Below, in pieces: positions 25,110 to 38,375 of a DNA stretch of 64,000 nucleotides; position 1 is the first letter of the stretch; each line of letters starts with the position of its first letter. Source of the stretch: a virus (taxonomy: Duplodnaviria; Heunggongvirae; Uroviricota; Caudoviricetes); the IMG/VR virus record IMGVR_UViG_3300017978_000250, positions 1 through 64,000 of that record. One strand, given 5' to 3'. The notes below the pieces were generated by a model. It was not told where the DNA came from and did no database searches. It saw only the letters and a list, made by a program, of their open reading frames with translations. A program made the translations under genes and the position numbers.

Positions 25110-26528
25110 TTAAGCCAAGTCGTAACGAGGCTTCATTACGGTCTTCAACATGATTGCTTCTGGGGTGAAGTCATCCATGTTACCGCCCATGATACCACCA
25201 GCAACAGCAGGGCTGAAACCAGAGACTAGAGCAGTACCCTTCTTGTCAAAAGACACAGGGGTGTTACCGTAAGCGGCGTTCAAGTTCCAGAACACAACAT
25301 TAGGAACAGTGTAACCTGCATCCTTAAACTTGCGTTCAATCATTTCGATTGCTGATTCGTCACGGTCTACACCTTGGTCGAATTGCATATCTGAAAAGAT
25401 TACCAATGTTTCAGGCATTTCTGCTTGTGGAACATTGTTCTTAACTGCAACATCCAGGATCAATTCAAACGCCTTGTGCAAGTTAGTGTTAGCTACCTCG
25501 CCTGTGTTCATTTGGTCAATCTTTTGGTTGATGTTACCTGTTAGGTTCACCAACTTAGGACGGTTGCTGAAAGTCAAGAATGTATCCTTGAACTTACCAG
25601 TGTTCTTGTCAGCAAAGTACAAGCCCAAAGAGATTGCAACTTCCAAGCAGGTCAAGCCTGACTTAGAGTTGTAACCACCTGCTGGACAAGTCATTGAACC
25701 TGACGAGTCTACCATTGGCAACACGTTAGCGTCACCGATGTAGTTTGGCAATGCGTTCCATTGCGCTTCCACAACATCCAACTCAGTCTTAGACATAGAG
25801 TTGTAACGACCGATGCGACCCTTAAGGACATCGTACGGGAAGATTGCGGATGCGTTGATTTTAACGCCTGCTTCACCCTTCACCAACTTCGAAACGTATT
25901 CAGCGTATGTTTGACCATGACGACCGAATGCCTTCTTGTATCGTGCGTGAGCAACTGAAGGGACATGTGAGAAGTTGATAGAGTCCCAGTTGTTCGAACA
26001 CATTTGTGTTTCGACAACATTTGTCATACCAACTAGTGTCTTACGATATTGCTTTGGAGTCATACCGAAGAACTCGCGGATTTCACGTGCAAGGGTGCCC
26101 TTACGTGGAGTCCACTTCGCAGCCAAGCCATTGCCGGAACGCAAAGCGTCACCGAGAATGTTGAATGCTTCCCACTTTAGTTTAGGGTCGGTGAAAACGA
26201 ACAAGTCGTCAAATCGACCCACTTCTGGAATCTTCTTCATCAAACGCAAAGCGTCTTCAGGAGAAGTCTTTTCCAAGTGACGCAAAACTGAACGGAACAA
26301 TTCACGTTCACCTGAGCCACCACGAACGTCACGTGCCCATTGAGCAATACGCAACGCCAAATCGGAGTTTTCTACGAAGGCAGCAGTGAAAGCAGGGACA
26401 ATGTCCTTACCTCGGGATGCGCCAATGTTATAGAACAAATCAACGCAAGCGTTTGCGCTGGATGCTCGTGCCTTCATGCCATTGGCAGTGCGGGCTTCTT
26501 GGTTCTTAATCGCTTCTACGAACTTCAT
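25110..26528 (-). CDS. Ro60-like protein (helical TROVE-like N-terminal region plus vWA domain with MIDAS DxSxS)
   Basis: 472 aa; MIDAS motif MVDSSGSM; architecture helical domain plus vWA as in Ro60/Rsr orthologs; Y-RNA-like element in its 5' leader. Confidence 0.55.
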   Translation of the reverse strand: MKFVEAIKNQEARTANGMKARASSANACVDLFYNIGASRGKDIVPAFTAAFVENSDLALRIAQWARDVRGGSGERELFRSVLRHLEKTSPEDALRLMKKIPEVGRFDDLFVFTDPKLKWEAFNILGDALRSGNGLAAKWTPRKGTLAREIREFFGMTPKQYRKTLVGMTNVVETQMCSNNWDSINFSHVPSVAHARYKKAFGRHGQTYAEYVSKLVKGEAGVKINASAIFPYDVLKGRIGRYNSMSKTELDVVEAQWNALPNYIGDANVLPMVDSSGSMTCPAGGYNSKSGLTCLEVAISLGLYFADKNTGKFKDTFLTFSNRPKLVNLTGNINQKIDQMNTGEVANTNLHKAFELILDVAVKNNVPQAEMPETLVIFSDMQFDQGVDRDESAIEMIERKFKDAGYTVPNVVFWNLNAAYGNTPVSFDKKGTALVSGFSPAVAGGIMGGNMDDFTPEAIMLKTVMKPRYDLA

Positions 26529-26552
26529 AGTTTTTCCTTTCTGTGTGTATAT

Positions 26553-26618
26553 GAAGCAGGATACATTTTTTCTTTTATACCAAAAAGTTAAAAGTTGCTG
26601 TTAGTATCCTAAAATTTC
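26553..26618 (-). ncRNA. Y-RNA-like stem element (copy iv) in 5' leader of Ro60-like gene
   Basis: 5' UUUUAGGAUACUAACAGCAAC ... 3' GUAUCCUG; AGGAUAC pairs with GUAUCCU; lies between the Ro promoter and the ATG. Confidence 0.5.
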
Positions 26619-26636
26619 TTACTGTCTAAAGATGTT

Positions 26637-26665
26637 ATTATAACATCCTTTTGAAATACTGTCTG
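26637..26665 (-). promoter_or_regulatory. sigma70-like promoter for Ro60-like gene (CAGACA-17-TATAAT)
   Basis: Minus strand CAGACA then 17-nt spacer then TATAAT. Confidence 0.5.
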
Positions 26666-27116
26666 TACTTTTGGGTACATGACTGGATGGACGAGACGTA
26701 ATTTATTTTTAGGGTCACCCGTCGATATCTCATGACCTTAGCTAACACGTTCACTGTTAGACTGCATATCCCATGTTCTACGGGAGACTATCTTATATTC
26801 TACAAGCACTAGTTAGCCTACCTTGCGGATACTAACATGCGTTAATATTGTTACTTGCTGAAACCATCCAAATATAACAGGTTAGTTGTTGACTGCTTTT
26901 ATTTTACTCAGGCCATCACTCTGAGCTTGTTAGTCTATTTCAATAGCGACCTTCAACGATTCACAGATTTTAACCTGCTTCACTCCAGCCAACTACCATA
27001 GGGTCTAACGATTCATAGTTAATGAATATTGCTGCGCCTAACCTTATGAAACTCGATACAAGTATTATAGCACAAATTCTTTGTTCTACAATACATTTTG
27101 GGTAACTAAATACTGA

Positions 27117-27713
27117 ATGACTTTATACGAAGAACTAGGCTTACAGCCAGACTGCACAATGGACCAGATTAAACTAAAGTATAGAATACTTGCTGGTGTC
27201 CATCATCCAGATAAGGGTGGCGATGAAGAACGATTCAAACGTATAAAGTTTGCTTATGAAGTTCTCAGTGATCCTGCACGCCGTAGACAATACGATGAAG
27301 ACAAGACTACCGATGAACCAACAGATAAACACAAAGAGGCTATTTCAAATCTAGCCGAAGTGTTCTTTGCAATCATTCCCAACTTTGATTGTCTCGGTGG
27401 CAACTTAATAGAAGCCATGAAGAACGAAATCAACAAAGTTAAAGCCATTGCTTTAAAAAACTTAGTTGAGAATGATATGTATATTTCTAATTTGGAAGTT
27501 GTCAAAAGTAAATTGAAGATGAAGAATCCTGAAAAGGAAAACATCATACTAGCATTTATTGAAACTCAATTAGAAACACGGTTAAGAGATAAAATTATCT
27601 ATGAAAAGAGAATTTCTATATCTGACTTGATGTTGTCAATACTTGATGACTATCAGTATGGATTCCTTGAGTTATTCAATGAAGTTCCAACTGACATTGT
27701 TGGCGGAAACTGA
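27117..27713 (+). CDS. J-domain (DnaJ-like) protein
   Basis: YEELGL...YRILAGVHHPDKGG...FKRIKFAYEVLSD: J domain with HPD motif; 3' end overlaps tRNA-Ser on the opposite strand. Confidence 0.7.
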   Translation: MTLYEELGLQPDCTMDQIKLKYRILAGVHHPDKGGDEERFKRIKFAYEVLSDPARRRQYDEDKTTDEPTDKHKEAISNLAEVFFAIIPNFDCLGGNLIEAMKNEINKVKAIALKNLVENDMYISNLEVVKSKLKMKNPEKENIILAFIETQLETRLRDKIIYEKRISISDLMLSILDDYQYGFLELFNEVPTDIVGGN

Positions 27714-27790
27714 GAGATTCGAACTCTCGGAACACGTTAATGTTCGACGGTTTTCAAGACCGTTGCGTTAAACCACTCTGCCAAGTTTCC
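27701..27790 (-). tRNA. tRNA-Ser(UGA)
   Basis: Acceptor GGAAACU/AGUUUCC, anticodon loop CTTGAAA, long variable arm, TTCGAAT T-loop, encoded CCA. Confidence 0.75.
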
Positions 27791-27795
27791 ATTAT

Positions 27796-27871
27796 TGGTG
27801 GAGGTGACAGGGATCGAACCCGCTACCTATTGCTTGCAAAGCAACCGCTCTCCCAGATGAGCTACACCCCC
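27796..27871 (-). tRNA. tRNA-Ala(UGC)
   Basis: Anticodon loop TTTGCAA; G3:U70 pair in acceptor stem; encoded CCA. Confidence 0.7.
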
Positions 27872-27880
27872 CATTATTTC

Positions 27881-28135
27881 TTAACGAAATTTTTCTTTGC
27901 GTGATTCAGTTGAATCGGAATTACGTACTTTTTTCAAGTACTCACGACCTACTAAACCTTGTTCAATCTCAAGCAATGCTGTAACTACACGGGCATTGTT
28001 TGTATCTATCTTTGGACGATGTCCATTAGCTAGTTCACGTACTCTTGCTGATGCAATCAATACTAAATCGTATCGATTACCTACTGCATCTACTGCTGTT
28101 TGGCTTGTGTACCGTACTCGGCTTTCTGTCGTCAT
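27881..28135 (-). CDS. rpoZ: RNA polymerase omega subunit-like protein (RpoZ-like)
   Basis: TAVDAVGNRYDLVLIASARVRELANG...VVTALLEIEQGLV closely parallels bacterial RpoZ N-terminal consensus. Confidence 0.55.
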   Translation of the reverse strand: MTTESRVRYTSQTAVDAVGNRYDLVLIASARVRELANGHRPKIDTNNARVVTALLEIEQGLVGREYLKKVRNSDSTESRKEKFR

Positions 28136-37728: not shown

Positions 37729-37802
37729 TGGCGTCCCCCCAGGGAGTCGAACCCCGGCCTGCGGATTTGGAATCCGTAATGCTACCGTAACACTTGGGAG
37801 AC
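37729..37802 (-). tRNA. tRNA-Trp(CCA)
   Basis: Loop TTCCAAA, T arm CCGGGG-TTCGACT-CCCTGG, CCA. Confidence 0.8.
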
Positions 37803-37809
37803 ATAAAAC

Positions 37810-37886
37810 TGGAACACGGGGTGAGATTCGAACTCACGAAAAACTGGTTTGCAATCAGTCACATTAGACCACTCTGTCACCCGTGC
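37810..37886 (-). tRNA. tRNA-Cys(GCA)-like (second copy)
   Basis: Loop TTGCAAA with A:C 31:39, T arm GTGAG-TTCGAAT-CTCAC, CCA. Confidence 0.5.
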
Positions 37887-37894
37887 ATAAACTT

Positions 37895-37968
37895 TGGTGC
37901 TCAAACGTAGAATCGAACTACGATATCTGTCATACCAAGACAGTGTTCTTCCATTAAACTATATGAGC
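37895..37968 (-). tRNA. tRNA-Thr(GGU)
   Basis: Perfect anticodon stem CTGTC/GACAG, loop TTGGTAT, CCA. Confidence 0.8.
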
Positions 37969-37970
37969 AT

Positions 37971-38047
37971 TGGCGCCACCGAAGAGATTCGAACTCCTGA
38001 CTCCTTCGTTCGTAGCGAAGTACTCTAATCCACTGAGTTACGGCGGC
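37971..38047 (-). tRNA. tRNA-Arg(ACG)
   Basis: Anticodon stem CTTCG/CGAAG, loop CTACGAA, D stem GCTC/GAGT, CCA. Confidence 0.8.
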
Positions 38048-38148
38048 ATAAATTGCTGGCAGTCCTTGGGGCTTGTACCCCTGCGTTTTCTAAGTCGTGT
38101 CCCGTCTGCCGTAGGACGCACGAGCGCAGCTTTCTTCTGGCCAGAATC

Positions 38149-38224
38149 TGGCACCCCCTGATGGACTCGAACCACCGCATGTCGGAATCAAAATCCGATG
38201 CCTTACCAACTTGGCGAAGAGGGT
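38149..38224 (-). tRNA. tRNA-Gln(UUG)
   Basis: Perfect anticodon stem TCGGA/TCCGA, loop TTTTGAT, T arm GGTGG-TTCGAGT-CCATC, CCA. Confidence 0.75.
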
Positions 38225-38300
38225 ATATAAAACAGGATAGAATTTTTACTGGTTGAATTAAAAGTTCAGAGTATAAATGTTGCTGTTACTATCCTAAAAC
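38225..38300 (-). ncRNA. Y-RNA-like stem element (copy iii), no tRNA-like domain
   Basis: 5' GUUUUAGGAUAGUAACAGCAAC ... 3' CUAUCCUGUUUUAUAU; AGGAUAG pairs with CUAUCCU; bounded by the tRNA 3' end at 38301 and the tRNA-Gln 5' end. Confidence 0.5.
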
Positions 38301-38375
38301 TGGTGGAGACCGAGGGAGTTGAACCCTTCTAGTCAGCAATCTTGCAAGGATCACCCGTAGCCCGCTACTGTCCCC
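38301..38375 (-). tRNA. tRNA-like gene, anticodon uncertain (UGC-like)
   Basis: Acceptor GGGGACA/GGTCTCC, T loop TTCAACT, CCA; contains ATTGCTGA motif. Confidence 0.4.

Follow-up and report, generated by a model that had tools for sequence, protein, structure and literature searches.

A predicted Ro60-fold protein and a linked family of stem-forming RNAs in the tRNA-rich region of an uncultured phage

The stretch of DNA analysed here (the window; positions 1 to 64,000 of the IMG/VR record IMGVR_UViG_3300017978_000250, 64 kb in all) belongs to an uncultured phage; IMG/VR and metagenome contigs, the longest of ~360 kb, are its close relatives. It has no close cultured relative, since megablast of the region against cultured phages matched tRNAs only. 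The minus strand encodes a 472-residue protein with a predicted Ro60 fold, a long tRNA array and several copies of a stem-forming RNA element, some beside the protein gene and some inside the array. An initial annotation, made from the sequence alone, had interpreted protein and RNAs as a Ro60/Y-RNA-like system, and the present analysis supports that interpretation.

The Ro60-fold protein and the RNA elements of the window

The principal features are listed below. Element limits include the opening base of the 5' stem strand at one end and the G that follows the 3' strand at the other, and scores are those of a covariance model, R1, which was trained only on copies from other phages with the window copies excluded.

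25110-26528, minus strand: gene for the Ro60-fold protein (472 aa; predicted fold), with a helical repeat domain and a vWA domain carrying a metal-ion-dependent adhesion site (MIDAS); Pfam DUF2828 + DUF7788, PHROG 850
26557-26610, minus strand: leader copy, AGGAUAC-UAA-CAGCAA ... GUAUCCU-G; 55.4 bits, E = 1.1e-10
26683-26870, minus strand: copy B, 188 nt; stem UGGAUGG/CCAUCCA, with UUU-CAGCAA after the 5' strand
26878-27044, minus strand: copy A, 167 nt; stem AGGUUAG/CUAACCU, enclosing a conserved folded module
27701-38883, minus strand: tRNA array with 43 of the 44 ARAGORN tRNAs of the window (all on the minus strand); hosts four element copies
36315-36373, minus strand: array copy; stem AGGAUCG/CGAUCCU, short hairpin interior; 45.5 bits, E = 2.6e-8
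36992-37108, minus strand: array copy; stem AGGAUAC/GUAUCCU, tRNA-like interior; E = 1.9e-5
37611-37723, minus strand: array copy; tRNA-like interior, T arm GUGGGUUCGAGUCCCAU, D arm GUAGCUCAAUGGUAGAGC; E = 5.5e-6
38233-38295, minus strand: array copy; stem AGGAUAG/CUAUCCU, hairpin with an anticodon-loop-like 7-nt loop (CUUUUAA); 58.4 bits, E = 2e-11

The protein matches DUF2828 (E = 2e-25) and DUF7788 (E = 7e-43) in Pfam, with a weak VWA_2 match, and phrog_850 'RNA-binding protein' in PHROGs (E = 8.7e-143). An AlphaFold2 model built on an alignment of 86 homologues has a predicted local distance difference test score (pLDDT) of 90.7 and a predicted template-modelling score (pTM) of 0.90. A Foldseek search of the PDB with this model returned only three matches at E <= 0.001, all of them Ro60 structures aligned over ~500 columns: Xenopus Ro (1yvr; E = 2.6e-9, TM score 0.63), Deinococcus Rsr (2nvo) and the Ro60 protein of Thermus phage phiLo (9kop). 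All further matches covered the vWA domain alone. The model superimposes over its full length on the solved Ro60 structures, with the helical-repeat ring domain followed by the vWA domain. The MIDAS residues are D274-S-S276-G-S278, T348 and D380, of which D274, S276, S278, T348 and D380 are invariant across the 86 homologues; Pfam vWA_Ro60 gives a weak match in 13 of these (best E = 5e-4). The Ro60/Rsr architecture that the initial annotation had read from this open reading frame (ORF) is thus borne out in its helical N-terminal part, vWA domain and MIDAS, and structure prediction puts Ro60 structures first, although by Pfam the protein is DUF2828 + DUF7788 and not TROVE. On the model, the protein has the Ro60 fold yet belongs to a sequence family separate from TROVE; the assignment rests on fold because sequence searches gave no significant TROVE link. 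The family is large, with 6137 cluster representatives (50% identity clusters) at E <= 0.001. Homologues of 31-47% identity occur in 710 cultured phage records, variously annotated as "RNA-binding protein", "Ro-like RNA binding protein", "vWFA protein" or "DUF2828".

In each RNA element the two ends pair in a closing helix of 7 bp, whose 5' strand is followed by NNN-CAGCAA and whose 3' strand is followed by a G. A scan of the window with this strict pattern gave seven copies, all on the minus strand (7 versus 0): four belong to the tRNA array, and the other three precede the Ro-like gene as tandem elements within 520 nt upstream of it. R1 recovered the five copies that had been reported originally (E = 2e-11 to 1.9e-5) and found nothing else in the window below E = 0.39. 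It misses copies A and B, which sit between the leader copy and a DnaJ ORF, because their interiors are too long for the model; these two rest on the pattern scan and on homology. Both sides of the copy A stem are changed relative to AGGAU/AUCCU, and sequence homologous to copy B occurs in eight related loci. All five minus-strand copies of the initial annotation are therefore present, and its count of at least five rises to seven with A and B. Its stem labels had been interchanged: AGGAUCG/CGAUCCU belongs to 36373-36315, AGGAUAG/CUAUCCU to 38295-38233, and 37108-36992 has AGGAUAC/GUAUCCU. Four further pattern matches (1964-2174, 15041-15259, 25121-25363 and 27157-27204), all in coding sequence, were treated as chance; the linker length is non-standard in three of them, while 1964-2174 has the standard 3-nt linker.

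Between the closing helices the interiors vary from copy to copy and comprise anticodon-loop-like hairpins, tRNA mimics of the kind found in bacterial YrlA RNAs and larger folded RNAs. The YrlA module is ordered T arm, capped acceptor-like stem, D arm (PMC4201824). In copies 37723-37611 and 37108-36992 a T arm, a capped acceptor-like hairpin and a D arm follow in that order, with an extra hairpin in the latter. Alignment of 37723-37611 to YrlA brings both its T arm and its D arm into register with the consensus and places CAGCAA at the site of the GNCGAA box. A T-arm-like module was seen in 12 of 103 unique close-relative elements and in 20 of 137 distant elements (both samples are described below). 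Among the seven window copies, two have the whole tRNA-like domain and the remaining five have no Rfam YrlA match at all. Of the two Y-RNA features claimed initially, the terminal stem thus stands, on covariation, and the YrlA-like tRNA module is confined to two of the seven copies and scores below the YrlA gathering threshold. An anticodon-loop-like hairpin (5-bp stem, 7-nt loop C-U-NNN-A-A) is found in 22 of 60 short close-relative elements and 14 of 63 distant elements, against 0-2 in shuffles, with loop triplets that include UUU, UCU, GUA, UGU and also GUU and GCU. The 167-nt module of copy A is conserved in 45 related loci, and in an RNAalifold prediction from 24 sequences 19 of its 26 pairs stay paired through two-sided changes.

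Covariation and gene linkage in related phages

The close-relative sample comprised 80 related viral loci (protein identity 70-97%). Copies were defined there as AGGAU-NN-N(2-4)-CAGCAA plus the first downstream AUCCUG, so that the two variable stem positions play no part in the definition. All 116 unique copies have a linker of 3 nt, and both variable positions pair in 115 of them (shuffle mean 45, maximum 59). When the motif ends are aligned (85 rows), 99.8% of cells are paired, compared with 84.8% after shuffling (none of 500 shuffles as high) and 30-52% in slid controls; stem pair 6 is AU in 30 rows, CG in 30 and GC in 25, and pair 7 is CG in 45 and GC in 37. The compensatory stem changes noticed in the initial annotation are thus strong covariation, far beyond shuffle and slide controls. 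A second helix directly within the closing stem is not a general feature, because only 49% of cells pair there.

The distant sample consisted of 80 loci from bacterial and metagenome-assembled genome (MAG) assemblies, with protein identity of 33-59%. Here the helices differ in sequence (AAGACGC, AAGGCAC, GGUUACC and others) and the CAGCAA box and trailing G persist. The gene strand carries 137 strict motifs and the opposite strand six, compared with 11 and 4 reversed-stem decoys on the two strands. At least one strict motif is present in 60 of the 80 loci; 113 of the 137 copies lie within 1 kb upstream of the gene, and each of the seven stem pairs is found in several Watson-Crick types. Gene and RNA motif are linked across phyla, and their pairing is met with in hundreds of phages.

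Many dispersed copies with inverted termini and variable interiors could also be selfish DNA, namely miniature inverted-repeat elements or scars of recombination in which the terminal inverted repeats only look like an RNA stem. We disfavour this explanation and consider it extremely improbable, since orientation follows the gene strand strictly (137 versus 6 in the distant loci, 7 versus 0 in the window), the CAGCAA box is on one arm only, the helix tolerates G-U pairs, the arms covary instead of being identical copies and the interiors are conserved structured RNAs. A mobile inverted-repeat element and a CRISPR-like repeat were both rejected because of the strict strand bias and the one-sided box. 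A terminator was likewise rejected: there is no conserved U tract, and a G-U-A-A-A-like sequence follows the distant copies.

The same arrangement recurs in cultured phages. FelixO1 has four copies in a tRNA array directly downstream of its Ro-like gene. In mycobacteriophage LeBron three copies follow directly after gp53; the second of these has a tRNA-like interior and reaches 39.8 bits with Rfam YrlA. In Listeria phage AG20 a promoter-like sequence is followed by three tandem copies and then the gene. Three copies lie downstream of the gene in Staphylococcus phage 6ec, and two upstream of it in Campylobacter phage F336. None of these elements is among the annotated tRNAs; they sit in spacers or beside the gene. 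In 6ec a single tRNA-Pro lies ~1.4 kb beyond the last copy, with an exonuclease gene between. Among the other loci, a Chloroflexi contig (L104) has a tRNA array of ~27 genes upstream of the homologue, and a permuted transfer-messenger RNA (L108:6027-6307) lies ~3 kb downstream of another homologue.

Rfam release 15, searched with the window, eight distant loci and five cultured-phage loci at the gathering score and at permissive E values, has no family that covers the motif; the only matches to motif copies were sub-threshold YrlA matches on those that are tRNA-like, and copies A and B matched no Rfam family.

Proposed processing, neighbouring genes and proposed role

Three array copies fill the spacers between tRNAs: 38233-38295 between tRNA-Ala and tRNA-Gln, 37611-37723 between tRNA-Trp and tRNA-Val, and 36992-37108 between tRNA-Asp and tRNA-Thr. 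The initial annotation had claimed exact filling for all array copies; this holds for these three and fails for 36373-36315, which follows an uncalled tRNA-like sequence ending in CCUCA and has no tRNA behind it. In related loci the gap between a tRNA 3' end and the start of the element is 6-8 nt for 33 elements, and that between the element end and the following tRNA is 6-12 nt for 28; from this tight spacing RNase P would be expected to define the element 3' ends. The array copies would then be cut from the tRNA precursor, with RNase P cleavage at the 5' end of the next tRNA giving the element 3' end and 3' maturation of the preceding CCA-encoding tRNA giving its 5' end; for tRNAs that encode CCA, RNase E and exonucleases are more likely to carry out this maturation than RNase Z. 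The three gene-proximal copies would be co-transcribed with the Ro-like gene.

The same geometry could reflect cis-acting punctuation of long tRNA or operon transcripts, that is, processing sites or stabilizing hairpins for host RNases that act independently of the Ro-like protein. In addition to the filled spacers and the tight spacing in relatives, the gene adjoins tRNA arrays in many phages, and the position of the elements beside it might be a by-product of this; we consider this explanation quite unlikely. Most distant copies stand in tandem immediately upstream of the gene with no tRNA next to them (113 of the 137 within 1 kb), LeBron and 6ec have tandem copies by the gene without an adjoining tRNA array, and only four of at least 40 spacers in the window's array carry an element. 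The invariant single-stranded CAGCAA beside a freely covarying helix resembles a specific protein site, and punctuation would hardly account for elaborate conserved interiors such as the tRNA mimics and the module of copy A.

The leader copy ends ~28 nt before the ATG and leaves the Shine-Dalgarno sequence uncovered. The distance from the end of an element to the ATG is 12-32 nt in 74 of 77 related loci, most often 28-32 nt, and with the last copy fixed at ~30 nt in the window's clade the protein may control translation of its own message. A promoter match lies immediately upstream of the leader copy:

26637-26665, minus strand: sigma-70-like promoter match, CAGACA-17-TATAAT with TG

This is a match to consensus only, such matches being no more numerous in the region than in its shuffles. 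Autoregulation might thus be primary, with the leader copy as a translational operator and the other copies titrating the protein; both the placement and the promoter-like site suit this explanation, which overlaps with that of a Ro ribonucleoprotein (RNP) and which we regard as possible, if doubtful. The leader placement is not general, because FelixO1, LeBron and 6ec have all their copies downstream of the gene, and in distant loci anything from 13 to >1000 nt separates the last element from the ATG. Further points that speak against autoregulation as the primary role are the uncovered Shine-Dalgarno sequence and the conserved tRNA-like and large inner modules, which titration alone leaves unexplained.

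Three RNA-repair genes lie 3-5 kb downstream of the Ro-like gene on the same strand and form a split T4-like tRNA-repair set:

21681-22226, minus strand: phosphoesterase gene (PHROGs phosphoesterase)
21209-21670, minus strand: gene for a polynucleotide-kinase-like (PNK-like) P-loop protein (PHROGs PNK)
20299-21240, minus strand: Rnl1-type RNA ligase gene (Pfam RNA_lig_T4_1, E = 3.5e-16; PHROGs RNA ligase)

We treat these genes as context; they may belong to the Ro-like system, as candidate members only. In the AG20 locus (L165, 4995-11491) the order is tRNA array, three motif copies, Ro-like gene, phosphohydrolase, RtcB-type 'tRNA splicing ligase', 'tRNA amidotransferase' and RNA ligase. With repair genes syntenic in the window and in the Listeria phage, and with tRNA-like and anticodon-loop-like modules that would suit tRNA enzymes, the motif could be recognized by another factor (PNK, phosphoesterase, Rnl1, RtcB or a host tRNA-binding protein) while the Ro-like protein acts on other RNAs. 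This is improbable in our estimation. The motif is linked most closely to the Ro-like gene (same strand and mostly within 1 kb, in many phyla), the motif is present around the Staphylococcus and Campylobacter homologues where no repair gene is annotated in 11-kb stretches, and known Ro60 proteins are encoded beside their Y RNAs on the same strand (Chen et al. 2014, PMC4201824).

From the protein fold, the RNA structure and the gene-RNA linkage we conclude, with a probability of about 0.7, that the locus encodes a phage RNP system of the Ro60/Y-RNA kind, which combines a divergent protein family with RNAs of a hitherto undescribed family. The closing helix and CAGCAA would form the docking site of the Ro-like protein and play the role of the stem and the GNCGAA or GGUCCGA box of YrlA and Y RNAs. 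The inner module would be the working end, which may anchor an enzyme that handles tRNA or RNA on the ring, or may serve to decoy such an enzyme. A likely role is tRNA or RNA quality control, or counter-defence during infection. Three points fit tRNA surveillance, repair or counter-defence, none of them proving it: the same-strand PNK, phosphoesterase and Rnl1 genes, together with RtcB and RNA ligase beside the Listeria homologue; the tRNA-like and anticodon-loop-like modules; and the report that gp130 of phage Bas63, a Ro60-like protein whose loss gives a defence-sensitivity phenotype, counters the ppl defence (PMC11482910).

More tentatively, these could be widespread unrecognized phage Y-like RNAs that display tRNA and anticodon mimics on a Ro-like ring and either decoy tRNA-cleaving host defence nucleases or deliver damaged tRNAs to PNK and ligase. 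If so, many phage tRNA arrays would carry a built-in RNP counter-defence module. A defined RNA partner would in any case account for conserved non-tRNA sequences within phage tRNA arrays, and it ties Ro-like RNPs to the question of why phages carry tRNAs and how they evade tRNA-targeting immunity. The protein family, which is far commoner in phages than TROVE systems and includes FelixO1 and its relatives, Listeria P100/A511-like phages and LeBron, has so far been an orphan "RNA-binding protein" without a known RNA, and a candidate partner with a simple signature makes its function directly testable.

Several observations weigh against the Ro60/Y-RNA interpretation. On the protein side, Pfam TROVE (PF05731) matches neither the window protein nor any of the 86 homologues at E <= 1, direct comparison of the window protein with PDB chains (phmmer) found nothing, and a profile of the 86 homologues (hmmsearch against PDB sequences) ranks TROVE/Ro60 chains first without reaching significance (E 0.07-0.15). 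On the RNA side, the closing helix is only 7 bp long. Copy 37108-36992 folds well (minimum free energy -39.2 kcal/mol, z = -4.76 versus shuffles), whereas the other four short or tRNA-like copies, and A and B, fold no better than shuffles; structural support comes from covariation, not from folding energy. The pair counts of the distant copies are biased because these were found by requiring pairing, and only the strand and decoy contrasts are unbiased. The YrlA matches of 37723-37611 (31.8 bits) and 37108-36992 (18.8 bits) are below the gathering score of 69, as are those of the phage elements overall (19-40 bits). NNN-CAGCAA after a 7-bp helix differs from the GNCGAAN0-1G of YrlA in both sequence and pairing, and there is no GGUCCGA box with a bulged helix as in vertebrate Y RNA, the invariant box being CAGCAA. 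The strict motif was not found in 20 of the 80 distant loci, nor within 3 kb of the homologue encoded by Aeromonas phage Aeh1; in these the box may have diverged, the RNAs may lie farther off or the pairing of gene and RNA may not be obligatory. Finally, binding of the RNAs by the protein, their processing into discrete species and their function are inferred.

The remaining features of the window are the following:

2682-4082, minus strand: nicotinamide phosphoribosyltransferase (NAMPT) gene, which points to phage-encoded NAD salvage
23233-23736: DSP/PTP-like phosphatase ORF, near the RNA-repair genes
24381-24457, minus strand: tRNA-Leu, the 44th ARAGORN tRNA, outside the main array
27117-27713, plus strand: DnaJ-domain ORF (198 aa), on the strand opposite to and between the tRNA array and the RNA/protein operon
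30487-30583, 35526-35613 and 38385-38468, minus strand: tRNA-like Rfam matches without an ARAGORN call
31568-32033, minus strand: full-length GOLLD RNA inside the tRNA array (Rfam, 208 bits, E = 2e-57)
34786-35418, minus strand: HNH endonuclease ORF (210 aa) inside the tRNA array, between tRNA-Thr and tRNA-Leu
36384-36456, minus strand: tRNA-like sequence with acceptor and T arms, ending in CCUCA; called by neither ARAGORN nor Rfam
36458-36577, minus strand: tRNA-like gene with an insertion; acceptor, D and T arms, CCA end and an anticodon-like hairpin (loop AUUUCAA)

The span of the GOLLD RNA includes tRNA-Lys(CUU) at 31898-31970. One of the three uncalled Rfam matches is a 97-nt tRNA match of 56 bits that may hold an insertion; the other two are sub-threshold and tRNA-Sec-like (32 and 25 bits). 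The tRNA-like sequence 36384-36456 immediately precedes element copy 36373-36315. The insertion of ~45 nt in the tRNA-like gene 36458-36577 is a capped hairpin followed by UUA-CAGCAA. A related phage copy (L054:4695-4812, 83% identical) keeps the hairpin stem and CAGCAA with a changed loop, and R1 scores the gene at only 10.8 bits; the insertion may represent the motif in circularly permuted form, grafted into a tRNA.

Comparison with known systems

Ro60-Y RNA particles occur in animals, in ~5% of bacteria and in a few phages, and to our knowledge they are known only for TROVE-domain proteins. Ro60 proteins hold Y RNAs on the outside of the ring and the ends of misfolded RNAs in its central cavity. 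The system of the window shares with bacterial Ro60 (Rsr) and YrlA (RF02553) a ring-plus-vWA protein fold, several RNAs per locus beside the gene and on the same strand, RNA ends that pair as a closing stem with a conserved box on the 5' side and, in some of the RNAs, a tRNA mimic with the same order of arms. It differs in that the protein is DUF2828 + DUF7788 / PHROG 850 and undetected by TROVE, in that many of the phage copies lack the tRNA mimic of YrlA and carry anticodon-loop-like hairpins or larger modules instead, and in that copies are embedded in phage tRNA arrays. The species 1 and 2 RNAs of phage T4 are small stable non-tRNA RNAs processed from the phage tRNA cluster, and they are not known to have a protein partner. 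The array copies may be comparable to them in their release by tRNA-processing enzymes.

The survey of Chen et al. (2014) covered only TROVE-annotated genomes (PMC4201824). Among phages, the phiRo60 protein of Thermus phage phiLo (PDB 9kop, 9l5y) is a TROVE-domain protein whose Yrl1 and Yrl2 RNAs have been described as stem-bulge-stem; it has been shown to bind the Yrl RNAs and host PNPase (PMC12135203).

Members of the window protein's family in cultured phages include LeBron gp53, annotated as 'Ro-like RNA-binding protein', FelixO1 ORF86 and Listeria and Staphylococcus proteins annotated as 'RNA-binding protein'. Bas63 gp130 is Ro60-like by structure and encoded beside tRNA genes, and its authors guessed that some of the neighbouring 'tRNAs' might be Y RNAs (PMC11482910; see also PMC13148394); judging from Felixounavirus gene order, it probably belongs to the family of the window protein. 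The Ro-likeness of the protein is therefore already on record, in the LeBron gp53 annotation and the Bas63 report. We found no Rfam family or open-access paper that describes CAGCAA-stem RNAs, and a description elsewhere is possible; within the open-access literature and Rfam, these RNA partners appear so far undescribed. The reports on LeBron, FelixO1 and Bas63 name no RNA partner for the protein, whereas here the candidates are defined by their closing helix and CAGCAA box.

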